From Candidatus Yanofskybacteria bacterium RIFCSPHIGHO2_01_FULL_41_21 (GTDB taxonomy: Bacteria; Patescibacteriota; Minisyncoccia; 2-02-FULL-40-12; GWA2-44-9), in the NCBI GenBank assembly GCA_001794025.1, contig MGJA01000012.1, positions 8,455 to 72,454 on the forward strand: 64,000 nucleotides of DNA, in the 5' to 3' direction. Shown in pieces: positions 7,406 through 59,958 of the stretch. The notes below the pieces were generated by a model. It saw nothing but the letters and a program-made list of their open reading frames with translations, did no database searches and was not told the origin of the DNA. Made by a program: the position numbers and the translations under genes. Every line of letters begins with the position of its first letter. Within the stretch, counting starts at the first letter, position 1.

Positions 7406-7582
7406 TGGTTGGTAGAGTTAGAAAAACCATTTTGGTACTTCTAGCTAATATTAAAGGAAAGTTAACTCTACTATACCTAAAAGTTTGGTTTTATGCAAAT
7501 TGGGTTGTTAACAGTCCATTTCGCCCGATTACCATTTTATTGCGGCTTCATTGCGAGAAGTCGCACAGTAATTTAATCTTAA

Positions 7583-7762
7583 GTCACTTGGGGGTATACT
7601 CTTAGACCCAGTAGCGGAAGGGGTCCCAGCGAAGCTGGGGGAACCGACGGTCCGCCAGCTGGCGGATGGTTCCCCGGGTCTGGGGATAAGAGTATGCCCC
7701 AAGTGACGTTGATACAATTTGAGGAGCAACTGAGTCGGGAGTTGGGTGGAGGAAGTGGAATC
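7583..7762. repeat. Family A element copy A2 with 22-bp TIRs (GTCACTTGGGGGTATACTCTTA ... TAAGAGTATGCCCCAAGTGAC) and about 55-nt conserved tail
   Basis: Near-identical core to A1 and A4. Flanking TIRs and the GTTGGGTGGAGG tail are seen directly. Lies between rny and gpmI. Confidence 0.6.
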
Positions 7763-11004: not shown

Positions 11005-11043
11005 CTAGATGTTTAAATGTACACGAAAGGATGGACTTTTACA

Positions 11044-11817: not shown

Positions 11818-11837
11818 ACTTTATTTACCCGCATTAA

Positions 11838-11880
11838 ACAGGAGACCCGCGCTCCAACAGTGCGGGTTTTCTGTTTTTTA
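11838..11880 (+). terminator. rho-independent terminator
   Basis: ACCCGCG-CTCCAACAG-TGCGGGT hairpin followed by TTTCTGTTTTTT. Confidence 0.55.
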
Positions 11881-11904
11881 TAAATAATCAAGTGAGGTCG
11901 TAAT

Positions 11905-12065
11905 CCAATTCGAGACAATCTAGACGTTACAGGAGTTGGTTGATATAATTAACGGTCAGCAGACCGATCAACCAACGAACTGCAATGCGAGTTTAGCTGA
12001 GGTGACGAAGGTAGCCCGAAGGGTACCAAGGAACCGGAGGCGTGTCGAGAATGGGTTACGACTCC
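11905..12065. repeat. Family B about 160-nt structured element, copy B1, immediately 3' of the 12072..13445 gene
   Basis: About 90% identical to 49908..50068. On the minus (gene-sense) strand it forms nested hairpins GUUGGUUGAU[CGGUC-UGCU-GACCG]...AUCAACCAAC and GGUACCC-UUCG-GGCUACC (UUCG tetraloop). Confidence 0.55.
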
Positions 12066-12071
12066 GCTTGA

Positions 12072-14736: not shown

Positions 14737-14747
14737 CCCAGGTAGTA

Positions 14748-14872
14748 GAAATCCGACCTGCGCTTTGTTTTGCTTACTAAAACGCAAGAATAATATCTCT
14801 ATTTTATCTATTAAATGCCACAAATAGTGAAGGTTAAGCGCATGCAAAACATGTCGGATTTTCACTACCTGG
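14748..14872. mobile_element. Family C MITE-like element, long copy (C-b)
   Basis: TIRs CCAGGTAGTAGAAATCCGAC ... GTCGGATTTTCACTACCTGG. Sits 11 nt upstream of the likely start of the transglycosylase gene. Confidence 0.55.
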
Positions 14873-15008
14873 CATCCTATTCATTGTATCATATATCTAC
14901 GAGTCAAGGGATAATTAAATTACCTTTAAATATTGGTCTCAAAATGAATGGTTGATAATTATTTGGTTTTACCGTGTCAAAAAGTTATAATATATATAAC
15001 AATCCAGA

Positions 15009-17225
15009 ATGATAAAAGTCCAAAATAATCTCCGACGTTTTGTCTGTTTTCTTTTAGTTATCTTAGCATCTTTTATTTTTGTAAATTCGGTCTCAGCTGT
15101 CACTCTTGGAATTTCCGGAAATCGTTTTACTCTTGATGGCCAAGCCAAATTTTTGGTCTTAAGTGGTTATTGGGATGGCTTGGATGCTCCTAATCCATCA
15201 GCTGACCTTAATTATCTTAAATCTAAAGGGTTTGATGGTATTAGAATATTTCCTAATTTGTGGGATTATTGTGCTGGTTGTTCTTCTGAATTTACACCTG
15301 GCAACAACCCAGTTATTAAACCCGATGGAACCATAAACCAATCTAGATTAAATCAATTAATTTCAATTATAGACACGGCAAATAGTTTGGGAATGATTGT
15401 TGATGTAACATTTGCCAGAGAAACAATAGCAGGAAATTGCCAAGCTAGCGCGGGGAATCCTGTTATTTGTATCACAGAATTTAAAAATGGAGTTATATCC
15501 GTCGTTAATGCTCTTAAAAATAAAACTAATGTTTTTTACGATTTATCTAATGAATACGATCATCCAGCAATAGATGTCCCTAATGCTGATATAATAGACC
15601 TCAAAAATAGAATCCGAAGTAACGTGGGGACAAACATAATTCTCTCTGTTTCTAGTAGCCAACCCAGCGGCTCTGTAGCAATAAATAATGCCCGTTCTAT
15701 GGGTATGAATTTAGTAAGTGTTCACTGGGCTTCTGGAACAACAGAATTAAATACCAGCCTTTATCCTGGTTCAATAATTTCATCTTTGCCGACATATGTG
15801 GGAGAGCCATATAATACCCACTCTGTGTCTGGTTACACTTCAGCGGAACTTATAAATGGAGTGGTAGAAGCAAAGAAGGCCGGTATCGCCGCTTGGTTGT
15901 TCCATTCAGATGCCACTTTCTTATCAAATGGTGAATATCCAATTAGATTTCAAAGCAATGAACAAGGATTTGTAAATAGTTTTTTATCGGCTTTACAAAG
16001 TGTAACTTGGGGTGGGGGTGGGGGCGGGGGTGGGACGGTACCACCGCCAACCAGTGGGGCTTGCATAAATCCGGCACCGGCCACATCAACTGTTCCGGAC
16101 ATGAAATCGGTTGTCCAAGGGGTAGCAGCGGCTCATCCAAACTGGTTACAAGACGTGTGTAATAGTTATGATTTTATAGACGAAGTAGTAAGACAATTAA
16201 GGGCTGGCCCAGGCGGGACGAGATGGGCTTATGAAGCGAAGCGGGCCAACTTAAGTGATCCTTGGCAGGAAGGAATTTCTTATTACTACGGTTCAGGAAA
16301 CGCACCAACTCCAGGAACAATGAGTCAATATGAGGTCTTTGCAATTGATATCGTTCATCAATATTGCGGTGTTGCCGGCGGAGGCACAAATACTGCTGAT
16401 TGGAATGTTGCAGATTGGCCTTATCGCAGTCCAAACTTAGTAGAAGTCGCTTATCTCTATCCAAGAAACGCCGGTGGCTCTCTGCCTGCTCCCCAACTTT
16501 GTACGGGGCAACCCCCTCCCCAGCCGCCACCGCCGCCCACCGGTCCGCCGACAATAACCGGTATCAGTCCTCTAAGAGCGGCTATCGGTCAAACAGTAGA
16601 AATTTATGGCACGAATTTAGTTGAAGATATTAAATTAGAATTATCGGATGGAAGATTTTACACGGTAACAGGAGTAGTTGATTTTCAAAGAACAACTCTT
16701 AGTTTCACAGTCCCCGATGCTCCCGCCGGTTCCTACAAAATATCTATCACCGGACCAAGTGGTTCAGCTACCAGTCCTCAAAATTTAGAAGTAGTTGCTG
16801 GTGGTTCCGGCTTCCCCCCTCCCCTTAACCTAGGTGTGCCTTCAGAAGGTCTACCAACTGATTTAGGACAGCTTATTGAGGCAATATTCAGTTGGTCTCT
16901 TTCTTTGATTGGTTTAGTTATCTTTGTCCGTTTCTTCTATGCCGGATTCTTATGGTTTACGGCGGCGGGTAATACAAATAGGACGGGACAAGCAAAAGAT
17001 ATAATGAAAAACGCCATTTATGGCGCTTTGATTCTTTTCTCGGCTTGGTTGATTCTTAATACTATCAACCCTGATTTGGTGGGAGGGGTCTTTGATTTAC
17101 CGGGGCTATCGGGGACGGCACCAACAAGCGGGACAGGAGGAACAGGAACAGCGGTCACTTGTAACAATGGTGTTTGCAGTAATGGTTTTACTGGGCCTTG
17201 TCAGGCCCCAACTGACTGTCAATAA
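15009..17225 (+). CDS. large secreted multidomain protein: signal peptide, GH5-like glycoside hydrolase region, poly-Gly and poly-Pro linkers, IPT/TIG-like domain, C-terminal two-helix TrbC/VirB2-pilin-like module, Cys-rich tail
   Basis: Signal peptide FVCFLLVILASFIFVNSVSA. LSNEYDHP resembles the GH5 NEP acid/base motif. ITGISP...VEIYGTNL is IPT/TIG-like. The C-terminal 100 aa (LIEAIFSWSLSLIGLVIFVRFFYAGFLWFTAAGN...AKDIMKNAIYGALILFSAWLIL) has two hydrophobic helices separated by a short loop. Confidence 0.8.
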   Translation: MIKVQNNLRRFVCFLLVILASFIFVNSVSAVTLGISGNRFTLDGQAKFLVLSGYWDGLDAPNPSADLNYLKSKGFDGIRIFPNLWDYCAGCSSEFTPGNNPVIKPDGTINQSRLNQLISIIDTANSLGMIVDVTFARETIAGNCQASAGNPVICITEFKNGVISVVNALKNKTNVFYDLSNEYDHPAIDVPNADIIDLKNRIRSNVGTNIILSVSSSQPSGSVAINNARSMGMNLVSVHWASGTTELNTSLYPGSIISSLPTYVGEPYNTHSVSGYTSAELINGVVEAKKAGIAAWLFHSDATFLSNGEYPIRFQSNEQGFVNSFLSALQSVTWGGGGGGGGTVPPPTSGACINPAPATSTVPDMKSVVQGVAAAHPNWLQDVCNSYDFIDEVVRQLRAGPGGTRWAYEAKRANLSDPWQEGISYYYGSGNAPTPGTMSQYEVFAIDIVHQYCGVAGGGTNTADWNVADWPYRSPNLVEVAYLYPRNAGGSLPAPQLCTGQPPPQPPPPPTGPPTITGISPLRAAIGQTVEIYGTNLVEDIKLELSDGRFYTVTGVVDFQRTTLSFTVPDAPAGSYKISITGPSGSATSPQNLEVVAGGSGFPPPLNLGVPSEGLPTDLGQLIEAIFSWSLSLIGLVIFVRFFYAGFLWFTAAGNTNRTGQAKDIMKNAIYGALILFSAWLILNTINPDLVGGVFDLPGLSGTAPTSGTGGTGTAVTCNNGVCSNGFTGPCQAPTDCQ
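16803..17110 (+). repeat. duplicated about 308-nt C-terminal module (copy 1) shared with 19264..19571 at about 93-95% nucleotide identity
   Basis: Direct comparison of the two nucleotide stretches; they differ only at scattered positions. Confidence 0.8.
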
Positions 17226-17256: not shown

Positions 17257-19587
17257 ATGGCAAATCGTATCCTAAAATTACTCTTAATAACGTTTCTTTT
17301 TATATTTCCCATACAATTAGTTTTTTCCAGTATTCCTCAATCTCTTCCTGCTCCGACTCATTCTATAATGTTCGGATATTATCATGTCGACTCACAATAC
17401 GGCGACTTTAAAGATGAAGTAAAGGACTACACAAACACCCAACTTATTCTTCAAGAAAGTTTTTTGAGAAGCGACCTAAATAATATCCAAGAATTTAATG
17501 ATGCTTTTGATGAGACGATAACCTTGGGACATAAAATTGTCTATGTCTTGGGGACGGACTGGAATCAAGGTCTTAATGCCGTTAAGCCCTATTGGAATAA
17601 CGTTGAGTTTATTTACTTAGCTGATGAGCCGAGTTGGGATAAAGCAACAACAGAGACCAATATTACTAATTTTAAAAATTTAGTAACCCAAGCCGGACTG
17701 GCTCAAAAACAGATAGCTATCAATTATACCCCCCAACAAATCCAAACTGGCACCAGTTATCAAGCCGTTAATCTAGACATCATCGGATTTGAAGCATATG
17801 TAGATCCGGCCAAGCAAGATGACCCCAATATCCTGACAATTTTAGAAGATCAGATAGATGCTTCCAAGCAAAAAATAGGCAATAAAAAAATGTTTATTGT
17901 TATTCAGGCCTATGACCGAAACGGTGTCTGGAAAAACATGACCTCTATTCAGGATATCCAAATTACCCCATACTTAAAATCTTACAATGATAGTAATGTC
18001 ATCGGCCTGTTTATGTTTTCTTATGCCCGATCGGGCGGAACGAGAGACAACCCGACCCTAAAAACAGCCCATCAATTAATCAGCGATACTTTGCTCGGAA
18101 AAGGACCCATTGAATCAACAATTACCGACGTCACTACAGGTTGGGGCGGTAGCTTGGCTTTTAATCCAACAAATAATACATGGATGGTTGTTAGTCACCA
18201 TCATACAATGAAAGATATATTTGCTCGTTTACTCGATAATAATGGTAACCCCTTAACCGTTATGACTACCGTTGACCAAGAACCTACATTTCTTACGGGC
18301 GGTCCAGAAGTGGCTTATTCTCCTGATATAAATAAATTCTTAATTGTCTGGTGGCAAGAAAATATTACAGACACTTCCGCGGACATTTATGGTCGTTTCA
18401 TGTCAGCTGACGGTGCTCTCTTGGGGAATGCCTTTAATCTTACCCCAAATGACTCTCGGGTTCCCTATCTCGCCGAAAGTTCAATAATGCAATACGATTC
18501 CCGCAATAAAAAATTTGTCTTTGCTTTTGAAAACAGGGCCCCAGGAAATGTGTCGGTCTATTTAAAAACGGTCGGCATAGACGGAACTGTCGGACCAACT
18601 TTGATGATAGCTGAAAATCCGCCGGATTTTTTGGGCGCACCATCATTAGCGATAAATGAAACAGGAAATGAATATTGCATAAGTTACCAAAATGCCGGCG
18701 CCAATCAACCCAATAAATTAGCCGCAGAATCAAGTAGTTTGGCTGTAAAAAGGATTGATGCCTCCACCATGCAAGTCGGACCTGAAACATTTGTTTCTAA
18801 CGATATGTACTACAACGGTGGTATCGTTTACAATTCACAAGAGGATAAATATTTTGCCACTTGGACCAACTACGCTTTAAGCACCGGACTTGCAAAAACT
18901 CTCAACTCCTGCGACGGTACAGACACTGATGATACTGAAGATATTGATATTTCTACTTCGGGAGTTATTTCTTATAACCCAAAATCAAATACTTATGCTC
19001 TGATTGCTCAAGATTGTTGTAGTGTACGCAACAACTACATTATTTTTGACACGTCTTTAAATGTCCTGGAACAAGGAACCGTGTTCACTGATTCCAAAAA
19101 ATCTGAAATAACAGGTGACCCCGAAGCTGGCGGTAATTTTGCTCCAGTAATCATGGCTAACACTAACAACGGGACATATGGTGCCACTTCCAGTATGGAT
19201 TATGCTACCACAAGATTTGCCTCCAATGTTGGTTCGACTGTTCTGCTTGGTAGAACATATAGCGGTTCCGGCTTCCCCCCTCCACTTAATCTGGGTGTAC
19301 CTTCAGAAGGTCTACCAACTGATTTAGGACAGCTTATTGAGGCAATATTCAGTTGGTCTCTTTCTTTGATTGGTTTAGTTATCTTTGTCCGTTTCTTCTA
19401 TGCCGGATTCTTATGGTTTACGGCAGCTGGTAATACATCAAATACAAGTAAAGCAAAGGATATAATGAAGAACGCCGTTTATGGCGCTTTGATTCTTTTC
19501 TCGGCTTGGTTGATTCTTAATACTATCAATCCTGACCTGGTGGGAGGGGGCTTTGATCTACCGGGATTGAGTGGTGGGATGCCTTAA
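17257..19587 (+). CDS. large secreted protein: signal peptide, glycoside-hydrolase-like region (IYLADEPSW), beta-rich repeat region, same C-terminal TrbC/VirB2-like two-helix module
   Basis: Signal peptide ILKLLLITFLFIFPIQLVFSS. C-terminal 100 aa nearly identical to the preceding gene. Confidence 0.8.
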   Translation: MANRILKLLLITFLFIFPIQLVFSSIPQSLPAPTHSIMFGYYHVDSQYGDFKDEVKDYTNTQLILQESFLRSDLNNIQEFNDAFDETITLGHKIVYVLGTDWNQGLNAVKPYWNNVEFIYLADEPSWDKATTETNITNFKNLVTQAGLAQKQIAINYTPQQIQTGTSYQAVNLDIIGFEAYVDPAKQDDPNILTILEDQIDASKQKIGNKKMFIVIQAYDRNGVWKNMTSIQDIQITPYLKSYNDSNVIGLFMFSYARSGGTRDNPTLKTAHQLISDTLLGKGPIESTITDVTTGWGGSLAFNPTNNTWMVVSHHHTMKDIFARLLDNNGNPLTVMTTVDQEPTFLTGGPEVAYSPDINKFLIVWWQENITDTSADIYGRFMSADGALLGNAFNLTPNDSRVPYLAESSIMQYDSRNKKFVFAFENRAPGNVSVYLKTVGIDGTVGPTLMIAENPPDFLGAPSLAINETGNEYCISYQNAGANQPNKLAAESSSLAVKRIDASTMQVGPETFVSNDMYYNGGIVYNSQEDKYFATWTNYALSTGLAKTLNSCDGTDTDDTEDIDISTSGVISYNPKSNTYALIAQDCCSVRNNYIIFDTSLNVLEQGTVFTDSKKSEITGDPEAGGNFAPVIMANTNNGTYGATSSMDYATTRFASNVGSTVLLGRTYSGSGFPPPLNLGVPSEGLPTDLGQLIEAIFSWSLSLIGLVIFVRFFYAGFLWFTAAGNTSNTSKAKDIMKNAVYGALILFSAWLILNTINPDLVGGGFDLPGLSGGMP
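19264..19571 (+). repeat. duplicated C-terminal module (copy 2)
   Basis: See 16803..17110. Confidence 0.8.
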
Positions 19588-27952: not shown

Positions 27953-29350
27953 TTATTTTTGAGATGGTAAATTACGAACTTCTTTTCGTCTTTCTTTAAT
28001 ATCAATCGGGTATTTACCAGTAAAACAAGAAGTACAAAACAAGGACTCTTTAAGCCCGGTGGCTTTAACCATGCCCGAATATGATAGGAAGTTGAGCGAA
28101 GTTGAGCCAAGGTAAGTATTCATCTGTTCAATGGTTTTATCAACAACCAGAAGGCCATATTGCCAAGGTAAATCAATGCCATAAAAATCCGGGAATCGGA
28201 CCGGCGGCGAACTGACCAGAAAATGAACTTCTTTCGCGCCGGTTTCAAAAAGCATCTTTACGATTTGGCGTGATGTCGTCCCCCGAACAATAGAATCATC
28301 AATCACAATTACCCGTTTTCCTTTTATAATTTCTTTGAGAGGCGCGAGTTTTAATTTTACGCCCTGCTCCCGAATATGTTGTTCCGGCTCAATAAATGTC
28401 CGGTGAATATACCGACTTTTTATCAATCCCATTTCAAAAGGAATACCGGAAGCATTGGCATAACCGATTGCTACAGGGATGGCGGTCTCGGGAACCGGAA
28501 TGACTACATCTGCAGAAATTTTATTTTCTTCAAATAATTTTTCCCCGAATTTTTTTCTGACATCATAAACCGATTGTCCCAATAAAATACTGTCCGGCCG
28601 AGAAAAATAAACAAATTCAAAGATGTCCAGTTTTTGAATGCTTTTAACAATCTGTTTTTTGTGAATTCCATTTTTATCAACTACGACTATCTCGCCCGGT
28701 TTTACAACACCTATAAATTCTGCGCCAATTGGATGAAAAGCGCATGTCTCGGAAGCAAAAACATAACCCCCATTTAATTTACCGATGGAAAGCGGGCGGA
28801 TACCATATTGGTCACGCACGGCAATTAGTTTGTCTTTGGTCATAATTAAAAGCGAAAAAGACCCCGTCATTAGGGGAAAAATTTCTTCAAGGGCTTTTTC
28901 TATTTTCATTCCTTCCTTCGTGAGGCAATAGAGCGCTTCAGTGATGAGTTTTGAATCAGAAACATCCGACAAGACCACACCTTTTTTCTTTAAAAAACTA
29001 TTAAGCGCTTTTACCGACGGTAAATTACCATTATGAGCCAAGGCGATTGAATGATCGGCGGTTTCAATGGGTTGGGCGTGTTTTACATCAGTACCCGATG
29101 AAGTAGAATAGCGATTATGTCCAATGGCGCAATGGCCAAATAAACTCCTGATTATTTCTTCATTAAAAACTTGAGCGACAAGACCATTATCTTTATAGCA
29201 GTAAATATTATTGCCGTCAGTTGAGGCAATTCCGGAACTCTCCTGTCCCCGATGTTGTAAGGCATATAAACCAAAAAAGGTCAGGCGACTTACATCCAGA
29301 CCTTTCCCATAAATCCCGAAAACAGCGCATTTTTCTCCAATGCTTTTCAT
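27953..29350 (-). CDS. purF: amidophosphoribosyltransferase
   Basis: Propeptide then nucleophile Cys (EKCAVFGIYG), glutamine amidotransferase type-2 N-domain, PRTase motif VVIDDSIVRGTT and C-terminal Cys cluster CFTGKYP. Confidence 0.9.
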   Translation of the reverse strand: MKSIGEKCAVFGIYGKGLDVSRLTFFGLYALQHRGQESSGIASTDGNNIYCYKDNGLVAQVFNEEIIRSLFGHCAIGHNRYSTSSGTDVKHAQPIETADHSIALAHNGNLPSVKALNSFLKKKGVVLSDVSDSKLITEALYCLTKEGMKIEKALEEIFPLMTGSFSLLIMTKDKLIAVRDQYGIRPLSIGKLNGGYVFASETCAFHPIGAEFIGVVKPGEIVVVDKNGIHKKQIVKSIQKLDIFEFVYFSRPDSILLGQSVYDVRKKFGEKLFEENKISADVVIPVPETAIPVAIGYANASGIPFEMGLIKSRYIHRTFIEPEQHIREQGVKLKLAPLKEIIKGKRVIVIDDSIVRGTTSRQIVKMLFETGAKEVHFLVSSPPVRFPDFYGIDLPWQYGLLVVDKTIEQMNTYLGSTSLNFLSYSGMVKATGLKESLFCTSCFTGKYPIDIKERRKEVRNLPSQK

Positions 29351-32843: not shown

Positions 32844-32917
32844 TGGCTGCGGGGGAAGGAATCGAACCTTCATTTTAGGATTCAAAGTCCCGCGTCCTAC
32901 CGTTAGACGACCCCGCA
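32844..32917 (-). tRNA. tRNA-Gln (anticodon TTG), CCA encoded
   Basis: Minus strand: UGCGGGG-UC-GUCUAACGGUAGGAC-G-CGGGA-CUUUGAA-UCCUA-AAAU-GAAGG-UUCGAUU-CCUUC-CCCCGCA-G-CCA. Cloverleaf folds with a 7-bp acceptor, GG-containing D-loop, UUCGAUU T-loop and anticodon UUG. One C-A mismatch closes the anticodon stem. Confidence 0.75.
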
Positions 32918-42897: not shown

Positions 42898-42908
42898 TGG
42901 TTTTCTTG

Positions 42909-43127
42909 CGGCTTCCGCTCGGAGTTCGCTCCCTCCACCCCAAACTCGATTATCCATCAAATTGTGTCAACGTCACTTGGGGTATACTCTTATCCCCAGA
43001 CCCAGGGAACCAGTCCCGTCGGTTCCCGAGGCGATTCTAGAGGCGGCTAAAGCACGCCTCCAAGAAACTTCGCCTTGACCAAAGGGTCCCCTTCCGCTAC
43101 TGGGTCTAAGAGTATACCCCAAGTGAC
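42909..43127. repeat. Family A element copy A3 (inverted orientation; GCGAAGC hairpin replaced by a 56-nt nested-hairpin insert)
   Basis: TIRs GTCACTTGGGGTATACTCTTA ... TAAGAGTATACCCCAAGTGAC. Core and tail match A2/A4 in reverse complement. Confidence 0.6.
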
Positions 43128-43171
43128 TTAAAATTAAATTACTCTCTTTTTTGGGTATTTTTTTAAATAAA

Positions 43172-43210
43172 AAAAGACCCCGTCGGAAGTCGCAATGTGG
43201 ACGGGGCTTT
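43172..43210 (-). terminator. rho-independent terminator (strong on minus strand)
   Basis: GACCCCGTC-GGAAGTCGCAATGTG-GACGGGGC. On the minus strand it is followed by UCUUUUUUUAUUU. Confidence 0.6.
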
Positions 43211-43700
43211 GTAGATTTTGGAGAGTAACGGGTCCGGACGGTGCGAACGAGTGATTTCCTCGTCGCACCGTCCGGCCGCCAGCCGGGCGATCGGCACGGA
43301 TCTTGGGCGCGGAGGTGTCACACCGCCCTCACCTTTAGCCGACCGCCCCGACTTCGTTTTCTCTGGCCGCCACAGAATTGTCATTGGTGCCGGTACGGGT
43401 ACGGGGAGCTCTCCCGACCCATGCGGCCCACCAAGCAATTGGTGAGGGCCAGACGTTCATCGCGATTGAGTCGCGACACTTACAGACCGGGTAAATAAAG
43501 GTCTCTATGAGAACATCGTCGAACCCCTCCTGGGGTGTACCTTTATCCACACACGGTCTTTTTAATGACCTGGGTTGCTGGAGACAGTTGGACGTCTCGG
43601 AGTTTTTTATTTCTCCGGCTCCCTTAGGCCCAGGTCAATTCATGAGCAACGGGCTCGCAAAAACCAATACCTACTCGCCCGTCCGTAGTTATACGGAGGA
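43211..43700 (-). ncRNA. GC-rich (about 60% GC) roughly 500-nt non-coding island with multiple stable hairpins; candidate structured ncRNA of unknown class, or a decayed GC-rich mobile insertion
   Basis: No credible ORF. Composition is very different from the roughly 38% GC surroundings. Has a 15-bp hairpin GGACGGUGCGAACGAG/CUCGUCGCACCGUCC and ends at the 43172 terminator on the minus strand. I tested tmRNA, RNase P and SRP consensus motifs by eye and could not place them. Confidence 0.3.
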
Positions 43701-44031
43701 GGGCTAACGCTCGCTATATATACGAACTTCTCTATGTTTCTATCGGCCTATTCAACTAAATAAAGTGATGATGCCTGAAAATAGCGTATTTACTGGTTTT
43801 TGCGAGCCCATTACTGGGCTCTTTATAAAGAACAGACCTATACAACCATTATAGCACCCTGCGCCTAGGAAGTCAACCCCGCCGTTGAGAAGCGACATTT
43901 AGGGCTAATTAATGGCTTTAAACCTATGTAAATTGTTCCCACCATTATTTTACCTATAGTCCATTTGAAGAATATTCATCGCTTCTCAACGGCGGGGTCA
44001 ATACCCCACAAAATTGGTATAACATAAGGGG

Positions 44032-46353: not shown

Positions 46354-47688
46354 CTAGTGGCTATCTTTGGGTCGCATGGTTGGGAAAAGAATAACTTCGC
46401 GCAGGGAATGGGAATCGGTTAAAAGGGCGACGAGGCGGTCAATGCCGATACCGAAGCCGGCTGAAGGTGGCATGCCGTATTCAAGGGCTTCAATGAAATC
46501 ATTGTCCATGCGTTGAGCTTCTTCATCACCTTTGGCGCGCATATTTTCTTGGGCCTTAAATCTTTCCTGTTGATCAATCGGGTCGTTTAATTCGGTGAAG
46601 GCCTTAACTAGCTCTGTTCCGCCGGCATAAAATTGAAAGGCCTCTACGACATCCGTACCGGGCTTTAATTTAGTAAGAGGTAACATATCTTTTGGATAGT
46701 CCATAACAAATGTTGGTTCAATCAGTGTCCCCCGAATTTTTTCTTTAAAAACAGTGTCCTCCAAACTGCCAACGTCCTGCATGAGTTCTTTGTAGGTAAT
46801 TCGGCGAAATGGTTTTTTGAATCTTTCAGGCGCAATTGTAACCATTAAGTCCTCAATAAAATCCATACCCCAATTATAGTCCTTATAAGCGACATAAAAT
46901 TCTACGGCTGAAAATTCAGGATTGTGTTCTCGATCAATGCCTTCATTTCTAAAATTAGTGGTAAATTCAAAAACCCGATCTAACCCGCCAACCAAAAGAC
47001 GCTTTAAATATAGTTCCGGCGCAATACGAAGAAACATATCTTGATCAAGAGCATTTAAATGGGTCTTGAACGGGCGGGCAGAAGCACCACCATATAACGG
47101 TTGCAGAGTCGGTGTGGTTACTTCCAAAAATTCATGTTTCATTAAATAGTGACGAATGGCTTGGATAATCTCGGCGCGCTTGATAAATTTCTCGCGAACT
47201 TCAGTACTCATCAATAAATCAAGATAGCGTTTACGGAAACGTTCTTCCACATCAATCAATCCGTGCCACTTTTCCGGCAACGGCAAAAGGGTCTTGGTCA
47301 ATATCCCTATTTCGGTGGCTTCTATAGTGCGTTCGTCTTTTTTGGTTTTGAAAAGAGTTCCCCTAACCTCAATGATGTCACCAATATCAATCAGTTCATT
47401 AAAAAATTTAAACCCATCCGCGCCAAGGGTGTCTTCTTTGGCACAACCTTGGATTTTTGAACCATCTTCATTCAAGTCAAAGAAAATAAGTCCGCCATGT
47501 CCACGTTGGGCCATAATCCTGCCAGCTAGGGTTACCTCTTTTTTTGACTCTGCAAGTTCATCAAATCTTTCCAATGCTTCAACCACGCTCATTGAGCGTT
47601 TTGTTGTCGCCGGATACGGATCTATCCCCATCTTCCGTATTTCCTTCAACTTATCCATTTTTACTTGCCGAATATCATCAAGAGCCAT
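46354..47688 (-). CDS. lysS: lysyl-tRNA synthetase (class II)
   Basis: OB-fold N-domain and class II catalytic core (motif 2 FRNEG, motif 3 GIGIDRL). Start is likely the internal Met (MALDDIRQ) rather than the ORF-track 47727. Confidence 0.9.
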   Translation of the reverse strand: MALDDIRQVKMDKLKEIRKMGIDPYPATTKRSMSVVEALERFDELAESKKEVTLAGRIMAQRGHGGLIFFDLNEDGSKIQGCAKEDTLGADGFKFFNELIDIGDIIEVRGTLFKTKKDERTIEATEIGILTKTLLPLPEKWHGLIDVEERFRKRYLDLLMSTEVREKFIKRAEIIQAIRHYLMKHEFLEVTTPTLQPLYGGASARPFKTHLNALDQDMFLRIAPELYLKRLLVGGLDRVFEFTTNFRNEGIDREHNPEFSAVEFYVAYKDYNWGMDFIEDLMVTIAPERFKKPFRRITYKELMQDVGSLEDTVFKEKIRGTLIEPTFVMDYPKDMLPLTKLKPGTDVVEAFQFYAGGTELVKAFTELNDPIDQQERFKAQENMRAKGDEEAQRMDNDFIEALEYGMPPSAGFGIGIDRLVALLTDSHSLREVILFPTMRPKDSH

Positions 47689-47878
47689 CCGAGTAGTAGA
47701 AGTTCCGGAATAATAATACAGACCCAAGCAGCCGGAACTTCACTACTTGGTTCATAGTATTAAGTATATAGTATTACGTATTATGTATCCAGAGCTTTAA
47801 AATATCAAATAAAACTAAACGCCGTCTCGGAACACCTCCTTGTTAGTGATGGCGTTTAGTGAGACGGCGGAAATTTGG

Positions 47879-49222
47879 CTAAGAGGGGGTGGGCAACGAG
47901 ATTCCCAGTTCTTCAACAAGAACACGCTTTACTTCAGCGACTGGGTCTTTTTCGTTAAGGACTTGGCGACCTAACACGATGTAATTAGCACCGTTTTCAA
48001 TGGCCCGTTTCGGCCTAGCAATCTCATCTGACCTGACTCCCGGCGTGACAAAAATCTTATCGAACGGGAACATTGCTTTCAGGCGTGAAACCTCTTGCGG
48101 TGGGCATACAAAACCGTCTGTCCTACCATTGTCAGCTTCAGTTGCCAGTCGTTTGACAGTATTGAGCAAAGTTTTTCTGTAGATCATCTTGCAGTCATCG
48201 TCACTCAAAGACGTCAGAGCCGTAATTGCCAAGACCTTGGTATTAGTATTGAATAATGCTTCCTTAGCAGCCCTGACCATTCTCATACCGCCCGAGGCGT
48301 GAACTGTTACGGCCCACACATTATGTTTGGCCAGACGCCGACAAGTGTTTTCAACGGTATTGGGAATATCGTGACACTTGAGATCAACCATGATTCGTCC
48401 ATAGACGGACAGTTCCGGCAACAAGTGATCCATTCCTTCAGCAAACAATAAATCATTCACCTTAAGAATGCACCCCATTGTCCGCAACTGTTCTACGATT
48501 GGCAGAATTTCATCCCACGACTTGCCATCAAGGGCAACAATGATTGGGTTTTGTTCTTTGACCGCCTCGTCGCATTGCTTCATCTCGCCCATATTGATGA
48601 GCTCACGGCGGACGTCATGAAGTGTCATCCCAGACCAAACATCAACACCCAAAATTCGCATGGTTTCTTTCCAGCCCTGCTGACGATCAACCAGAACCAC
48701 CAGAGCCAGGACGTCAAGACCAAGATTGAAGCACTCATTACAAGGAATGAACTTCGTCGTGCCATCGGTAATAACGTCGTCAATCAGACAGACCTGTTCG
48801 CCTTTGACGGCATCACCAATCACTTTTGCATTGCCGACACGGCCTTCTTTGGCCTCGCCCCGAATCGTGAGATACGGGATATTTGAAGCCACCGATAGTG
48901 TTCCGGCAAAACAAGAAACCGAGTCCGGTATTTCTACGAACCGCTGAACATTGAGCCGTTGCAACGGCTCCATGAACAGTTCTGTAAGAAAACTGATAGC
49001 TTTGGAATTATTTCGCGCATCACGCAAGTTGATATAGATGTCCGTTTTGCCACCACTCGCCAAGGGTAGGTTCCGACCGTTATCAAACTCCAACAATCCG
49101 AAGTCAAGTAGACGCCTGACAACTTCCCGTTGGTGCTCGCGCGGAATCCACGGCTGTTTCATTGATAATAGTTTCAAGGTACACACTCCTCCAGCCAAAT
49201 TTGGCTGGCCATATTCTGCCAT
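47879..49222 (-). CDS. bifunctional orotate phosphoribosyltransferase / orotidine-5'-phosphate decarboxylase (PyrE-PyrF fusion, UMP-synthase-like order)
   Basis: N-terminal PRTase motif VCLIDDVITDGTT. C-terminal ODCase motifs IVALDG, DLKCHDIPNT, VHASGG, VTPGVR, LGRQV. Local GC is visibly higher than the surroundings. Confidence 0.85.
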   Translation of the reverse strand: MAEYGQPNLAGGVCTLKLLSMKQPWIPREHQREVVRRLLDFGLLEFDNGRNLPLASGGKTDIYINLRDARNNSKAISFLTELFMEPLQRLNVQRFVEIPDSVSCFAGTLSVASNIPYLTIRGEAKEGRVGNAKVIGDAVKGEQVCLIDDVITDGTTKFIPCNECFNLGLDVLALVVLVDRQQGWKETMRILGVDVWSGMTLHDVRRELINMGEMKQCDEAVKEQNPIIVALDGKSWDEILPIVEQLRTMGCILKVNDLLFAEGMDHLLPELSVYGRIMVDLKCHDIPNTVENTCRRLAKHNVWAVTVHASGGMRMVRAAKEALFNTNTKVLAITALTSLSDDDCKMIYRKTLLNTVKRLATEADNGRTDGFVCPPQEVSRLKAMFPFDKIFVTPGVRSDEIARPKRAIENGANYIVLGRQVLNEKDPVAEVKRVLVEELGISLPTPS

Positions 49223-49328
49223 TTCGTATAAATAAAATCAAGCAAACCCCTTAAAAATCCAAGGTGGAACCTTATATTTTTAAGTTGACATTATAACTAT
49301 CCTAGTATATAATACGCAACAGACGGCT

Positions 49329-49823
49329 TTGTTTCCGCCCACAATGGGCAAGGAGGTTGCGATGGGTTTGAAAAAGTTGAATCGGTTGACACCAGTGATG
49401 ATGGACGATATCGTTGCTGGTCAGACGTACATCAGAGTAATTGTAGATGTGTACGGCTGGATGAGATTGTCGTACCAAGTTTTCTACGGAAGGGCTTTCA
49501 AAGACAAAGCGATTGTTGTGGATTCTTGGTGGATTAGAATCTCTGAAAACGGGAGAGCAGTTCAGGTTCAGTCATTAACGGATATGGGTATGGATCCATC
49601 CCATTTTCACAACGACCATCGAACCTTCAGAAACACGGGGAAAAACGAGCAGAAGCTCAATGATCTCGTAGAACGCCAAGCTCTCGCCGAGTACCTTACT
49701 CTCATTGGTTACAGTGACCCAAAAGATGAGGTTGCCAAGATTAAGGTTCAAGGTGAAGATCACCGTAGATTCGCTCGCGTGTTAGACAGCATGAAATATG
49801 AATCGGATGATCTTTCGCTTTAA
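49329..49823 (+). CDS. hypothetical protein
   Basis: 164-aa ORF in the GC-richer patch. No family recognised. Confidence 0.4.
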   Translation: MFPPTMGKEVAMGLKKLNRLTPVMMDDIVAGQTYIRVIVDVYGWMRLSYQVFYGRAFKDKAIVVDSWWIRISENGRAVQVQSLTDMGMDPSHFHNDHRTFRNTGKNEQKLNDLVERQALAEYLTLIGYSDPKDEVAKIKVQGEDHRRFARVLDSMKYESDDLSL

Positions 49824-49907
49824 CCGAACCACCCCCCGGACGACTAGGACGTCCGGGGGTAAATTATTTTATACAAAAAAATCACTTAAAGTAACCAGGA
49901 GTCCTTG

Positions 49908-50068
49908 CCAATTTGAGACAATCGAGACGTTGCAGGAGTTGGTTGATATAATATTTGGTCAGCAGACCGATCAACCAACGAACTGCAATGCGAGTTTAGC
50001 TGAGGTGACGAAGGTAGCCCGAAGGGTACCGAGGAGCCGGAGGCGTGTCGAGAATGGTAAGGACTCTT
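49908..50068. repeat. Family B structured element, copy B2, ending 2 nt before the greA stop codon
   Basis: See 11905..12065. Confidence 0.55.
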
Positions 50069-50070
50069 GG

Positions 50071-50532
50071 TTACTTAACTTCCAAAATCTTGTACTGCTC
50101 TATACCGCGAGGGGTGCGGACTTCGACAGTGTCGCCTTTTTTGTGGCCGAGGAAGGCCTTACCAAGAGGTGACTCATTGGAGATAAACCCGGCGGTTGGG
50201 TTTGATTCGGTCACGCCGACAATAACAAATTGCTGAGAACCTTTACCGGATTCAACCTTAACATTTGAACCGACAACAACAACTCCACCGGACTTGGCGC
50301 CGTCAGATACAATAATGGCATTTTCAATGGTTTGACGGATTTCTTCTATTCGCCCTTCATTGATTGATTGGGCTTCTTTGGCGGCATCAAACTCGGCATT
50401 TTCGGATAAGTCGCCCTGTTCTTTTGCCTCTTTGATACGCTTGGAAATTTCCGGGCGAAGAACACTAGTTCTTTCCAAAAGCTCATTTTTAAGTTTTTCC
50501 AGACCTTCCTTGCTAAAATATTGGTTAGACAT
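50071..50532 (-). CDS. greA: transcription elongation factor GreA
   Basis: 153 aa. N-terminal coiled-coil with acidic tip (DLSENAEFD), C-terminal FKBP-like domain. Confidence 0.9.
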   Translation of the reverse strand: MSNQYFSKEGLEKLKNELLERTSVLRPEISKRIKEAKEQGDLSENAEFDAAKEAQSINEGRIEEIRQTIENAIIVSDGAKSGGVVVVGSNVKVESGKGSQQFVIVGVTESNPTAGFISNESPLGKAFLGHKKGDTVEVRTPRGIEQYKILEVK

Positions 50533-53102: not shown

Positions 53103-53884
53103 TACCGTATAACAACGACCGAACCTTGACCAGGTTGAACCGAAGGATTAACACTTATTTTTTTAAAAAGTTGGGTGTCATTATTATCAATATTCCGAAC
53201 AACCCCAATCACTAAACCGGCCGGAGTTGTATCGTCTCCTGTTGTAATAATTATATCTTCTTCCGAAATGACATCGACCTGGGTGATAAGGTTAAAATTC
53301 ATGCCATCAGCCAATGCGCCATGGATAATACCGCTGGTTTGACCGTTTAATACACGGGCGGTAACTGAAAAGGCGGGATCAGTTATAAGCATCACTCGAG
53401 ATGACGTTGAAAAAACTGAACTTATTTTACCGATAAGCTCTCCATTCAAAGAAACAGCCATTTGGTCCACAGTGACTCCATCCGTCAATCCCTTGTTAAT
53501 CAACGCGTAATGGCCATCGGGTCCAAGAGAGATGTTAAATATTCCGGCCGACAACAAATCACGTTTTAAACGGGTCTTCAGACCAATTGCTTTTTTTAAA
53601 ATATCATTTTCGTTTTGGAGCGCTTCAATAGTCGCCAAGGTTGAGACCTGATTGGCGATTAAATCACGGAGCTTGGCGTTTTCAGTAGATAAATTTTTCC
53701 ATTGTTTAACATATCCGAACCATTCCCTTGTCTGGCCGACAATATCAAATAACGAAACCCCCGCAGATATCCCCGGCGCATATTGACGACGCACAGCGTG
53801 AAGCAAAACAATGTTTAGGGCGATTAGGACCGTAAGAATTATGGCTGAAATAAATAATAGTTTAGAAATATTTTCACTGCGCAT
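53102..53884 (-). CDS. mreC: rod shape-determining protein MreC
   Basis: N-terminal TM, coiled-coil, then beta-domains with G-rich motifs (LINKGLTDGVTVDQMAV ... GQTSGIIHG). Confidence 0.8.
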   Translation of the reverse strand: MRSENISKLLFISAIILTVLIALNIVLLHAVRRQYAPGISAGVSLFDIVGQTREWFGYVKQWKNLSTENAKLRDLIANQVSTLATIEALQNENDILKKAIGLKTRLKRDLLSAGIFNISLGPDGHYALINKGLTDGVTVDQMAVSLNGELIGKISSVFSTSSRVMLITDPAFSVTARVLNGQTSGIIHGALADGMNFNLITQVDVISEEDIIITTGDDTTPAGLVIGVVRNIDNNDTQLFKKISVNPSVQPGQGSVVVIR

Positions 53885-54020
53885 CCGGGATAGTAGAAAT
53901 TCGACCTGCGCTTTAGGTTTTTATACCTAAATGCGTACTATCGAATATCATTAAAAACATAATTATGACAAATATTTAATCTAGGCGCCAAAAAAACCCA
54001 GTCGAATTTTCACTACCCGG
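53885..54020. mobile_element. Family C MITE-like element, long copy (C-c), abutting the mreC ATG
   Basis: TIRs CCGGGATAGTAGAAATTCGAC ... GTCGAATTTTCACTACCCGG. Interior shares GACCTGCGCTTTAGGTTTTT and AAACCCAGTCG with C-e. Confidence 0.55.
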
Positions 54021-54025
54021 CATCG

Positions 54026-55233: not shown

Positions 55234-56694
55234 CTAGTAGGACTGGGCAAAGAGCCACTTATGGAGAGCGGGTTTGCCACAGTGGACACAGGGCGTGTCG
55301 GAGAGAACTTCTTGGATGCGGTCCAATTCAAGACAACGGGTACCGGCTTTGGTTTCTTCCTTGATAGTCGCTTCGCAGGATGCATCTTCACACCAAGGAG
55401 CGCGAATAAACATTTTCTTATCGGTCATGACTGATTTAAATTCATCCCAAGTTGAAACTTCTGTAGTCAGGTCATTACGGGACTGCTCCGATTTTTTGTA
55501 TAAGTCCTTTTGAATAATTTCCAACAAAGCCGGCACTTCCAATGACAATAAGTCGGTGTTGGTCTGATGCTTCGCGAAAGTATCACGTCGGACTAGGGTG
55601 GTATTTTGGGCTTCTAATTCTTTACCACCGACTTCAATCCGCAAAGGCACACCTTTCAATTCCCAATCATTAATTCTAAAACCAAGTGTTTTTCTGAAAT
55701 CAATATCGGAGACCACACGGACACCGGCATCTTTAAGTATTTTATGAATATGGCCGACATAAGTAGCCACTTTTTCTTCCATTTCTTGATCTTTACCGGC
55801 TATACCAATAATTACAACTTGTTGGGGCGCGACAGCCGGAGGCAAGACCAATCCTGAATCATCACCGTGGACAAATATCAGTCCACCAATGGCCCGAGTT
55901 GAAAGACCCCATGATGTTTGATGGGCCAATTTTTTATTCCCTTCTTCGTCTAAATATTCAACATTAAAGACCTTAGTGAAATGGTCGGCGAGATAATGAG
56001 AAGTAGCCGACTGTAATGCTTTGCCGTCCGGGACAACAATTTCCACTGAATAAGTATCTTCTGCGCCGGCGAACTTTTCTGATTGACTTTTTAGACCAAC
56101 ATACGGGGCAATGGCGAAATATCCACGATAAAATTTGGAATACCATTCAAGCGCGGTCATAACCATAACCATGGCATCTTTTTTGTCAGCATGAACGGTG
56201 TGACCTTCTTGCCACAAAAATTCCGAGGTTCTTAAAAACGGATAGGTACGTTTTTCCCAACGGACAATATTGCACCATTGGTTAAGCTTCATAGGTAAAT
56301 CACGATGACTCTGAACCCAATCGGAGAATTTTTGCGTAATAACAATTTCTGAAGTTGGGCGAACGGCCAGTGGTTCGGCCAGTTCTTCTCCGCCGGCGTG
56401 AGTAACAACCGCCAGTTCCGGGGAAAATCCTTCCACGTGTTCTTTTTCTTTTTGAAACGCACTCATGGGAATAAAGACCGGGAAATAACAATTCTGGACA
56501 CCATCTTCTTTAAACCAACCATCTAACACGCTTTGAGTTTTCTCCCATAACGCATAACCGTGGGGTTTGATAATCATGCAACCCTTAACGTCAGCGTACT
56601 CCGCCAAACCAGCCCGCAATACGACATCATGATACCAATCCGAAATATTTTCGGATTTTTTGGTCAGACCTTTTTTTCCAAAAACTTTAGACAT
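55234..56694 (-). CDS. proS: prolyl-tRNA synthetase (archaeal/eukaryotic-type, C-terminal zinc-binding domain)
   Basis: Class II core, anticodon-binding domain, C-terminal CVHCGKP. No bacterial-type INS editing domain. Confidence 0.9.
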   Translation of the reverse strand: MSKVFGKKGLTKKSENISDWYHDVVLRAGLAEYADVKGCMIIKPHGYALWEKTQSVLDGWFKEDGVQNCYFPVFIPMSAFQKEKEHVEGFSPELAVVTHAGGEELAEPLAVRPTSEIVITQKFSDWVQSHRDLPMKLNQWCNIVRWEKRTYPFLRTSEFLWQEGHTVHADKKDAMVMVMTALEWYSKFYRGYFAIAPYVGLKSQSEKFAGAEDTYSVEIVVPDGKALQSATSHYLADHFTKVFNVEYLDEEGNKKLAHQTSWGLSTRAIGGLIFVHGDDSGLVLPPAVAPQQVVIIGIAGKDQEMEEKVATYVGHIHKILKDAGVRVVSDIDFRKTLGFRINDWELKGVPLRIEVGGKELEAQNTTLVRRDTFAKHQTNTDLLSLEVPALLEIIQKDLYKKSEQSRNDLTTEVSTWDEFKSVMTDKKMFIRAPWCEDASCEATIKEETKAGTRCLELDRIQEVLSDTPCVHCGKPALHKWLFAQSY

Positions 56695-57940: not shown

Positions 57941-58518
57941 TAGCTTGTCATTAATTCTTGCTCTTTTTTCTTAACCATCTCGTCAATCTTTTTTTGGAGG
58001 TCGTCTACGATTTTTTGAAGTTCGTCTTTGGCTTTGAAGGCCTCATCTTCGCGGGCAGTTTTTTCTTTGACGGCGGTTTGAACTTTTTTAAGAATATCTT
58101 CACGGGTTTGGCGGATGCGGATGCGGACTTCTTCTATTTTTTGATGGAGAATTTTGGTGAATTCTTTGCGTCGTTCTTCATTTAAGGGTGGAATAGTGAG
58201 ACGAATAGTATGACCGTCATTAGCCGGATTCAAACCCAACGAGCTTTCACGAATCGCTTTTTCAATTAATGGCACGACAGTCGCATCCCAGGGTTGAATC
58301 ACAATCACCCGCGGTTCCGGCGCACTAATACTGGCCAGTTCTTTGACTCGTGAACGCGCGCCCAAATATTCAACTTGAATATCTTCTACCAATGATGGGT
58401 TAGCTCGGCCTGTCCGAATTGAGGCCGCTTCCATTTTGGCCATTTCTAAAGCCGAATCAAAATCCTTTTTCCTAGATGCGATTAATTCCTTATACACCAG
58501 GTAGTAGAAATCCGACAT
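57940..58518 (-). CDS. frr: ribosome recycling factor
   Basis: IRTGRANPSLVEDIQVEYLG and C-terminal helical arm. First 8 codons (MSDFYYLV) are encoded by the TIR of Family C element C-e. Confidence 0.85.
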   Translation of the reverse strand: MSDFYYLVYKELIASRKKDFDSALEMAKMEAASIRTGRANPSLVEDIQVEYLGARSRVKELASISAPEPRVIVIQPWDATVVPLIEKAIRESSLGLNPANDGHTIRLTIPPLNEERRKEFTKILHQKIEEVRIRIRQTREDILKKVQTAVKEKTAREDEAFKAKDELQKIVDDLQKKIDEMVKKKEQELMTS

Positions 58519-58632
58519 GCACCTTAGGTTTTAGACCTAACCATGCAACATCAAATTACTTGTTTATATTTAAATTCCCAGATAGTTGATATAATCGGTG
58601 CTACTAAAACCCAGTCGGATTTTCACTACCTG
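58497..58632. mobile_element. Family C MITE-like element, long copy (C-e), overlapping the frr start
   Basis: TIRs CCAGGTAGTAGAAATCCGAC ... GTCGGATTTTCACTACCTGG. Interior contains TTGATATAAT (a -10-like sequence). Confidence 0.55.
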
Positions 58633-58647
58633 GTACATAATCTTATC

Positions 58648-59502: not shown

Positions 59503-59797
59503 ATGATAATTTAACCATATCTAGAATCACTTCGCCACTGGGTTTATTATCGCGGCTTCCTCTTGGACTATTTCTACTCGCTTCTCCTAATTTCTCTGAC
59601 CGCCCGAAGCAACTCCTGTCGGGCCATGCGGCTTCGCTTCGCTCACCCGTTCCCGACATCCTCGGAACGGTTCCCAGAGAAATAGCGTTGAAACTCGTGA
59701 AATAGAACCAATCGTGCAGATGCTCAATAAACCCAGTGGCTCAGTGCTTTTTCTAGAAAAACCCAAAGCGAGAAGTCACGTAGCAATTTAATTCTAA

Positions 59798-59958
59798 GTC
59801 ACTTGGGGTATACTCTTAGACCCAGTAGCGGAAGGGGTCCCAGCGAAGCTGGGGGAACCGACGGGACTGGTTCCCCGGGTCTGGGGATAAGAGTGTACTC
59901 CAAGTGACGTTGATACAGACGGATAATCAAGTCGGGGGTTGGGGTGGAGGGAGCGGAG
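59798..59958. repeat. Family A element copy A4 (TIRs + core + tail; tail overlaps the last codons of murG)
   Basis: Near-identical to A2, with a shortened central hairpin (GGAACCGACGGGACTGGTTCC). Confidence 0.6.

Follow-up and report, generated by a model that had tools for sequence, protein, structure and literature searches.

OPRT (orotate phosphoribosyltransferase) and ODC (orotidine-5'-phosphate decarboxylase, also OMPDC), the enzymes of the last two steps towards uridine monophosphate (UMP), are found fused in the order OPRT-ODC in plants and metazoa and in the order ODC-OPRT in kinetoplastids, oomycetes and some cyanobacteria, and such fusions arose independently several times (PMC2705460). 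Most classes within the CPR (candidate phyla radiation, or Patescibacteria) have been reported to be without UMP synthesis, the de novo route being generally considered absent from these bacteria, while keeping the conversion of UMP to cytidine triphosphate (PMC9166423, PMC11608272), and we found no literature specific to a CPR OPRT or UMP synthase. Here we describe pyrEF, a gene for a fused OPRT-ODC protein, in a stretch of 64,000 nucleotides (hereafter the window) of contig MGJA01000012.1 from Candidatus Yanofskybacteria bacterium RIFCSPHIGHO2_01_FULL_41_21. Our analysis makes it likely that pyrEF encodes a bifunctional UMP synthase, that it sits in an accessory block derived from DNA of higher G+C content (GC), and that the gene moves among CPR lineages.

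Three described systems serve for comparison. Eukaryotic UMP synthase (human UMPS) carries both activities in the same OPRT-OMPDC order and shares the OPRT fold and the phosphoribosyl pyrophosphate (PRPP) motif, whereas the ODC half of the CPR protein is of the bacterial PyrF type and its family is seen only in CPR. The PyrF-PyrE proteins of cyanobacteria and kinetoplastids (NF004034 / PRK05500; Leishmania donovani UMPS, 3qw4) fuse the same two activities, and the OPRT half of the Leishmania protein is the closest solved relative of the N-terminal half of the window protein; their order is however the opposite one (ODC-OPRT), and of NF004034 only the OPRT part is matched by the window protein, at 48.9 bits where the cut-off is 656. 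The entire ODC half can be aligned with stand-alone E. coli PyrF (1eix/1l2u) and shares its catalytic residues, but the window protein differs from stand-alone PyrF and PyrE in being fused and in lacking eight residues of the gripper loop, including an Asp-Gln pair. E. coli and Salmonella PyrE are distant from the OPRT half (E ~1e-3).

The pyrEF protein and its family

The pyrEF open reading frame (ORF) occupies 47879-49222 on the minus strand and spans 447 aa as a maximal ORF. Translation probably starts at the TTG at 49177, giving a protein of about 432 aa and leaving the first ~16 codons of the maximal ORF untranslated: GGAGGA stands 9 nt upstream of this codon, homologues begin at KLLSMKQPW, and residues 1-18 of the predicted structure have a local confidence score (pLDDT) below 50. 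Profiles, alignment, searches of the PDB and the predicted structure divide the protein into an OPRT half (residues ~21-215; 48578-49162, minus strand) and an ODC half (residues 226-433; 47924-48547, minus strand). Directly after the stop codon we read a probable terminator-like hairpin on the minus strand (47810-47869; arms 47820-47828 and 47861-47869, followed by a T-rich tail), which the automatic terminator scan did not call and whose loop is large.

The ODC half was recognised by Pfam OMPdecase (PF00215; residues 226-433, 129.5 bits against a cut-off of 27) and by NCBIfam pyrF TIGR01740 (132.9 bits, above its threshold of 92.3), while the full-length equivalog NF001273 scored 175.8, under its cut-off of 193. 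When a profile of 31 family members was compared with all PDB sequences it retrieved E. coli-type PyrF structures at E ~1e-47, and the half is nearest the PyrF of E. coli, Vibrio and Coxiella (163 bits, 34-36% identity). A structure was predicted with AlphaFold2 on the family alignment (pLDDT 87.7; predicted template-modelling score, pTM, 0.85) and searched against the PDB by Foldseek, which matched the TIM barrel to 1l2u, 3uwq and 3ru6 with template-modelling (TM) scores of 0.85-0.88 and root-mean-square deviations (rmsd) of 2.0-2.3 Å (PyrF 1l2u: TM 0.85, rmsd 2.3 Å, 36% identity). Asp232, Lys254 and Asp280-x-Lys282-x-x-Asp285 are present and are invariant or near-invariant in the 31-sequence alignment, and Ser338 and Arg419 (GRQ) are conserved. 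By homology and predicted structure, this half belongs with bacterial PyrF.

The OPRT half is more divergent. In the family profile search of the PDB it matched Leishmania UMPS at E 5.7e-25 and the human OPRT domain at 4.7e-17; used alone as a query, the N-terminal half matched 3qw4 at E 6.6e-15, and 17 of its 19 matches to PDB sequences were OPRTs, the other two being a 'phosphoribosyltransferase' and a PRPP synthetase. Foldseek likewise returned OPRTs (2wns, TM 0.77; also 3qw4, 3dez, 2aee and 4ohc). The PRPP motif VCLIDDVITDGTT, which the first-pass annotation had correctly placed in the 447-aa ORF (residues 144-156, nt 48755-48793), is invariant in the family alignment, as are Lys125 (R-x-E-A-K) and Arg180 (VDRQQGW); we take Lys125 to be the flexible-loop Lys, and VDRQQGW the 'DR.E.G' region, of Salmonella/E. 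coli OPRT. A near-invariant family residue, Lys55, is replaced by Ala in the window allele. Several results count against the assignment: NCBIfam models gave only sub-threshold OPRT matches on residues 32-222 (TIGR00336 pyrE, 50.9 bits against a cut-off of 106.8; NF010382 / PRK13809, 58.6 bits against 208), Pfam Pribosyltran had no match to the protein at E 0.01, and the half is by sequence OPRT-like but outside the curated models, with its substrate specificity assigned by similarity. We nevertheless read it as a divergent type-I phosphoribosyltransferase of the orotate-specific kind, which would convert orotate and PRPP to orotidine monophosphate (OMP), and we accept the whole, on profile and model evidence, as a bifunctional OPRT-ODC protein. 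The succession of OPRT and then ODC proposed at first reading is supported for both halves by profiles, PDB searches and the AlphaFold model. A relative, L005, has a dihydroorotate dehydrogenase (DHODH)-like gene followed by PyrC (TIGR00856, 393 bits) and then pyrEF, a gene order that ties the family to pyrimidine synthesis.

A protein search returned 841 homologues at E <= 1e-5, and every named source was a member of the Patescibacteria/CPR. The 120 homologues listed are mostly 430-450 aa long and nearly all cover at least 90% of the query, both halves included, yet their records are labelled only "orotidine-5'-phosphate decarboxylase", a name that follows from the OPRT half lying outside the curated OPRT models. 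Scanning one genome per GTDB species yielded 53 pyrEF loci, in Buchanan-, Taylor-, Falkow-, Jorgensen-, Moran-, Staskawicz-, Doudna-, Sung- and Azambacteria and others. The OPRT-ODC fusion is, as judged from these sequences, the norm for a CPR-wide family of ~435-aa proteins, which gives many CPR bacteria the last two steps of UMP synthesis on one protein. As records and Pfam annotate the decarboxylase half only, a metabolic reconstruction would credit these genomes with pyrF but not with pyrE; the kind of enzyme is ordinary, and it is the CPR-wide fused form that is under-annotated.

The order of the halves had been described as eukaryote-like and uncommon in bacteria. It does match that of plants and metazoa (PMC2705460), and the OPRT half finds its best solved relatives in the OPRT domains of UMPS from Leishmania and human, as would be expected if pyrEF were a eukaryotic UMP synthase taken up by a bacterium. 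We consider such an import highly improbable: the ODC half is nearest to bacterial PyrF, no eukaryotic ODC structure stands among the best 60 PDB sequence matches or the best 50 Foldseek matches listed, the human OPRT domain is only 24% identical to the OPRT half (Foldseek), the named sources of homologues are all CPR bacteria, OPRT/ODC fusions have originated repeatedly and independently (PMC2705460), and on a viral contig, L060, pyrF is followed by a CPR-type pyrE that is a gene in its own right. The resemblance to eukaryotes is thus one of analogy only, and because its ODC half is bacterial in type, the CPR pyrEF is most likely one more independent fusion. Since the fusion is normal for the family, domain order says nothing on origin here.

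The viral contig (IMGVR_UViG_3300027887_000043), AT-rich and phage-like, encodes a 207-aa PyrE with the family motifs LPLKSGGTTDIYINLR, EVPDSVSCFA and VLVDRQQGW; its pyrF and pyrE are separate overlapping genes in the order F-E (10007-11294), which shows that the OPRT and ODC components travel unfused too. Both adjoin ORFs that resemble cell-wall hydrolases by eye, and together they may form a viral auxiliary UMP-synthesis module.

A shortened gripper loop in the decarboxylase half

The ODC motifs had been listed as complete. DLKCHDIPNT (residues 280-289), VHASGG and VTPGVR are indeed present, but eight residues are gone after VTPGVRSD: the family consensus VTPGIRSxGxxxxDQxRIxTP reads VTPGVRSD-EIARP in the window allele, and the family alignment places an in-frame 8-codon deletion between Asp399 and Glu400 (48023-48028, minus strand). 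Among the lost residues is the near-invariant Asp-Gln of the phosphodianion gripper loop, of which the earlier reading made no mention; this pair aligns with the gripper-loop Gln of OMP decarboxylase, and the corresponding Arg419 is retained. The segment measures 36 residues in 100 of the 120 listed homologues, and among these 120 the short loop of 28 residues occurs only in the window protein (P0001) and in P0002, whose gene stands at locus L006. A deletion of this kind is unusual. In yeast OMPDC, the Q215A substitution costs 2.2 kcal/mol and raises Km 60-80-fold, and R235A, at the counterpart of Arg419, costs 5.6 kcal/mol (PMC12874384; PMC8157535).

The deletion does not stand alone. Of the columns that are at least 93% conserved, 12 differ in the window allele, six of them around the ODC phosphate site, and G367R, S374P and T403R cluster there with the deletion; apart from Lys55->Ala, four more positions close to the phosphate pocket differ from the family. 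This clustering raises the possibility of impairment or of a change of substrate, and tells against a fully competent UMP synthase. The allele might accordingly be crippled or re-purposed, loss of the gripper loop having ended or shifted OMP decarboxylation and Lys55->Ala having weakened the OPRT. The retention of the deleted motif in nearly all other homologues, the 12 departures and the yeast value of 2.2 kcal/mol for the equivalent Gln, with its 60-80-fold increase in Km (PMC12874384), speak for this explanation. We nonetheless regard it as unlikely. The ratio of nonsynonymous to synonymous divergence (dN/dS) between the window and L006 alleles is 0.14 overall (by halves, OPRT 0.12 and ODC 0.17), and purifying selection on pyrEF continues; since the deletion is common to P0002/L006, the value of 0.17 dates from after it arose. 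The Asp-x-Lys-x-x-Asp motif, Lys254, Asp232, Ser338 and the larger-effect Arg419 are all intact, the AlphaFold model retains the barrel with pLDDT ~80-90 in the region of the deletion, and the ORF is uninterrupted and equipped with a ribosome-binding site and a terminator.

Taken together, the low dN/dS against a sister allele that shares the deletion suggests a working enzyme, and the yeast mutants suggest that it binds OMP more weakly, rather than having lost activity. The shortened loop runs over 26 residues from Pro394 to Arg419, presumably comparable to that of Methanothermobacter OMPDC, which we take to be naturally short. Loop-closure models of catalysis by OMP decarboxylase could readily be tested on this natural deletion.

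Composition and history of the accessory block

Between the start of LysRS (47688) and the stop of GreA (50071), the window holds a block of 2.3 kb (47689-50070) with pyrEF, a divergent 153-aa gene and a repeated, structured element that we refer to as Family B. About 21 kb of L066/L067, a 303-kb contig, run collinear with the window (window ~34-59 kb), with identities of 89% for MreB, 88% for the T4 coupling protein, 85% for LysRS and 83% each for GreA and SerRS. In that contig 43 nt separate GreA from the LysRS that follows it, and pyrEF, the 153-aa gene and the Family B element are all missing, so that the 2.3 kb constitutes an indel and the block is accessory. L003, at about the same distance from the window (GreA 88%, SerRS 78%), carries its pyrEF at this very GreA|LysRS junction, accompanied by a GIY-YIG gene and by small upstream ORFs that differ from those of the window. 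In L006 (87% identical), pyrEF and the 153-aa gene remain arranged as in the window, and the start of a Family B element is retained as well. By these comparisons the block is accessory but old, not recent, and its history would comprise two gains, or else a single gain and a single loss.

The patch had been described as GC-richer than the flanking genes, plus-strand neighbour included, and the excess is real. Among the 52 ORFs of the window, pyrEF has the highest GC (0.481, z +2.2; mean 0.404), and its third-position GC (GC3) of 0.507 (z +2.6; ORF mean 0.366 ± 0.055) and that of the neighbour (0.509; GC 0.453 as a 164-aa ORF) are the two highest values in the window. Codon usage, which was to be compared alongside, proved merely modestly atypical, with pyrEF ranking third in distance among the 30 genes of at least 250 codons. 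Horizontal acquisition, as first proposed, therefore stands in so far as the block is accessory (L066/L067) and compositionally foreign, but it was not recent (L003, L006). The first-pass annotation had also named ordinary composition, together with fused pyrEF as the rule in close relatives, as the signature of vertical inheritance; we found the latter, as a family-wide norm, and not the former, pyrEF being a GC outlier.

The same pattern recurs across CPR. At every one of 50 loci pyrEF exceeds its flanks in GC (mean +0.078), and its GC3 is the top value among local ORFs in 24 of 49, where 4.8 would be expected (P ~1.6e-12); z exceeds 2 in 21 of these loci and is below 0 in six, the lowest being -1.7. 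The GC island is gene-sized, rising from 34% to 63% in L002 and running 37% -> 53% -> 34% in L039, while in L007, of the window's clade, the genome is GC-rich and the composition of pyrEF fits its host. ORFs of 100 aa or more within 6 kb were clustered for 57 loci, and no conserved neighbourhood emerged; a DHODH-like gene lies upstream of pyrEF in just four of them, and homologues 80-82% identical share no neighbour (L017/L025, for example, at 82%). In two syntenic pairs the synonymous divergence (dS) of pyrEF is far below that of its neighbours (0.25 against 1.6-2.5 in L031/L037; 0.46 against 0.67-1.48 in L034/L033). From the GC3 pattern, the gene-sized islands and the unrelated neighbourhoods, we read repeated transfer of pyrEF from GC-richer CPR donors. 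A neighbour-joining tree of pyrEF was star-like and carried no support values, and was not used for counting transfers.

Descent could instead have been purely vertical, with pyrEF ancestral at the GreA|LysRS junction and deleted in L066, and with its GC excess upheld by a force particular to the gene, for instance GC-biased gene conversion or selection acting at synonymous sites. Several observations favour this account and weigh against transfer. The junction is common to the window and L003, and between them pyrEF (71% identity) has diverged as far as the flanking proteins (53-88%), which by sequence comparison fits vertical descent with one loss in L066 equally well. Their GC excess has lasted although synonymous sites are saturated (synonymous differences per site, pS, 0.75), and the Jorgensenbacteria-like pair L034/L033 is syntenic, with GC3 of 0.83-0.85 in hosts of 0.55-0.59. 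The excess is one-sided over the 49 loci and the island exactly gene-sized; random exchange among CPR lineages does not predict one-sidedness, and a gene-specific GC-maintaining force explains both it and the persistence in syntenic pairs better than transfer does. Moreover, no integrase, transposase or tRNA gene lies in or flanking the block, the sole tRNA gene of the window being at 32844-32917.

We still hold purely vertical descent to be rather unlikely. Synonymous changes polarised since the split of the window and L006 run 22 GC->AT against 6 AT->GC, a count in which GC-rich outgroups bias the inference towards GC->AT; this strong trend in both lineages leaves no maintaining force visible and fits amelioration of GC-rich DNA. 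At third positions G3 and C3 are both up while A3 and T3 are both down equally, which points to a different mutational background rather than to codon selection, and greA, frr and mreB reach a GC3 of only 0.37-0.43 though they are probably well expressed. Close homologues occur in unrelated neighbourhoods, and the non-homologous DNA upstream of pyrEF is GC-rich too in L003, L004 and the window.

Under the reading that we prefer, of a UMP synthase gene in an accessory block and mobile among CPR, GC-richer DNA carrying the block would have entered an ancestor of the window lineage, and its composition would since have drifted towards that of the AT-rich host. The gene would move repeatedly between CPR lineages, with the direction and number of transfers conjectural, and would supply UMP from orotate, whether this is imported or produced by other parts of the genome. 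As had been noted at the outset, the window holds no other pyr gene: none was found in Pfam scans of 30 further ORFs or, for the remaining ORFs, in the called-gene table of the near-identical contig L001 and a reading of the translations.

Four further proposals were set aside. A uridine-sparing mRNA, poor in U and made when uridine triphosphate is scarce, does not agree with the equal fall of A3 and T3, the rise of C3 and G3 and the lack of strand asymmetry; a conserved pyr operon around pyrEF did not emerge from the clustering over 57 loci; the small divergent GC-rich upstream ORFs are lineage-specific and not mutually homologous, and so are no cassette partners; and for phages as the usual vector there are homologues on one viral contig only, as two genes, with a weak PHROGs match.

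More tentatively, pyrEF might represent a recurrently transferred 'UMP autonomy' cassette drawn from a GC-rich donor pool, or else a gene with its own GC-keeping and slow synonymous sites. If this were so, a core nucleotide-synthesis step in CPR symbionts would be an exchangeable accessory trait, and CPR metabolic reconstructions would systematically miss a hidden OPRT half. The occurrence of pyrEF in one near relative but not in another, taken with its composition in the different lineages, suggests that CPR symbionts acquire and lose the capacity to form UMP from orotate over short timescales, which bears on their dependence on hosts.

The neighbouring gene, Family B and other features of the window

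The divergent neighbour had been given as a 164-aa plus-strand gene. It is a GC-rich plus-strand gene, but its length is more likely 153 aa (49362-49823), counted from a start with the ribosome-binding site AAGGAGG. Upstream stands a predicted sigma-70-type promoter with a perfect TTGACA-17 nt-TATAAT (49285-49313, plus strand), and an intrinsic-terminator-like hairpin follows the gene (49833-49859, plus strand), both from sequence scans. Its dN/dS against L006 is 0.40, and a homologue search placed it in a small conserved family of 43 cluster representatives with a weak resemblance to Phage_g100.

The Family B element (49885-50080, plus strand) consists of an invariant core of ~150 nt (49908-50057), in the window 94% identical to 11905-12054, and an outer helix of ~20 bp, as delimited by repeat comparison, folding and a covariance model. 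The second copy in the window lies at 11880-12078 (plus strand), and further copies were found in L061, L062, L063, L064 and L065, with a partial one at L006 1-66. On the plus strand the element folds at -93.9 kcal/mol (z = -10.6); RNAalifold gave 62 pairs, 16 of them with compensatory changes, and the outer helix always pairs although its sequence is wholly different among four copy types. One copy has its apical hairpin expanded by 49 nt, and the core holds a perfect extended -10 box (TGATATAAT, within 49950-49958). The 3' arm of the helix abuts the GreA stop codon (50071-50073) and, in five of six copies, the stop codon of a convergent gene. From these features Family B looks like an undescribed structured element of ~195 nt, present in multiple copies in related CPR contigs. 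Rfam returned nothing for it at the gathering threshold or at E <= 1, and a peptide encoded in the core is unlikely, since in the translations read most differences between copies would change an amino acid.

Family B had been proposed to mark a boundary of transferred DNA. The element is real, but it is not a general companion of pyrEF and does not appear to mark a transfer boundary: its covariance model found no copy at ~50 other pyrEF loci, and the other five copies do not adjoin pyrEF.

At the second copy, a 266-aa ORF (11017-11817; GC3 0.42; no Pfam, NCBIfam or PHROGs match) and its terminator are absent from L063 (83-88% DNA identity), as seen by comparing window 11046-11883 with L063 2700-2730. 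This indel falls exactly at the 5' foot of the element, and similar T-rich sequence (TTTTACAA / TTTTATAAA) stands at both of its junctions. The indel hinted at a landing pad for genes, but what adjoins the other copies on their 5' side is ordinary and varies from copy to copy, and we treat this as a weak lead.

Other repeats were also present. A second family forms long GC-rich hairpins at 7567-7742, 59782-59917, 42937-43143 and 5766-5852, with arms such as GTCACTTGGGGTATACTCTTAGACCCAG; the Family B covariance model gives three of its copies weak scores (27-35 bits), owing mostly to a long closing helix that resembles its own. A third family has hairpin stems of ~20 bp (CCAGGTAGTAGAAATCCGAC ... 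GTCGGATTTTCACTACCTGG) at 14734-14875, 53882-54023, 58493-58636 and 47689-47760; these hairpins are intergenic and lie directly upstream of minus-strand starts (mreC, lysS and others), the ATG touching the foot of the stem, and L066 has no such hairpin before lysS. The ~1.1 kb at 42898-44031 contains no ORF of at least 110 aa, reaches a GC of 0.51, and is in parts 85-86% identical to the end of L003; a repeat copy lies in it, as does an inverted repeat of 30 nt (43645-43674 / 43786-43815), and Rfam had no match there at the gathering threshold. A 300-nt direct repeat (16803-17102 / 19264-19563, 92% identical) corresponds to the C-terminal parts of adjacent large secreted proteins of 738 and 776 aa, each ending in a T4SS-pilin domain.

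Elsewhere in the window, PurF (27953-29350, minus strand) is a genuine amidophosphoribosyltransferase (TIGR01134, 440 bits against a cut-off of 350) and stands alone, no further pur gene having been found nearby. Between the window ProRS (55234-56694; 486 aa, ProRS-C_1 type) and that of L066, which has 419 aa, identity is 25%. With the window LysRS (46354-47727), the L003 enzyme shares only 53% identity overall, although over the first 465 nt of its gene the DNA agrees at 78%, an unevenness that suggests a mosaic. Aminoacyl-tRNA synthetases thus appear to be swapped in place among otherwise collinear relatives.

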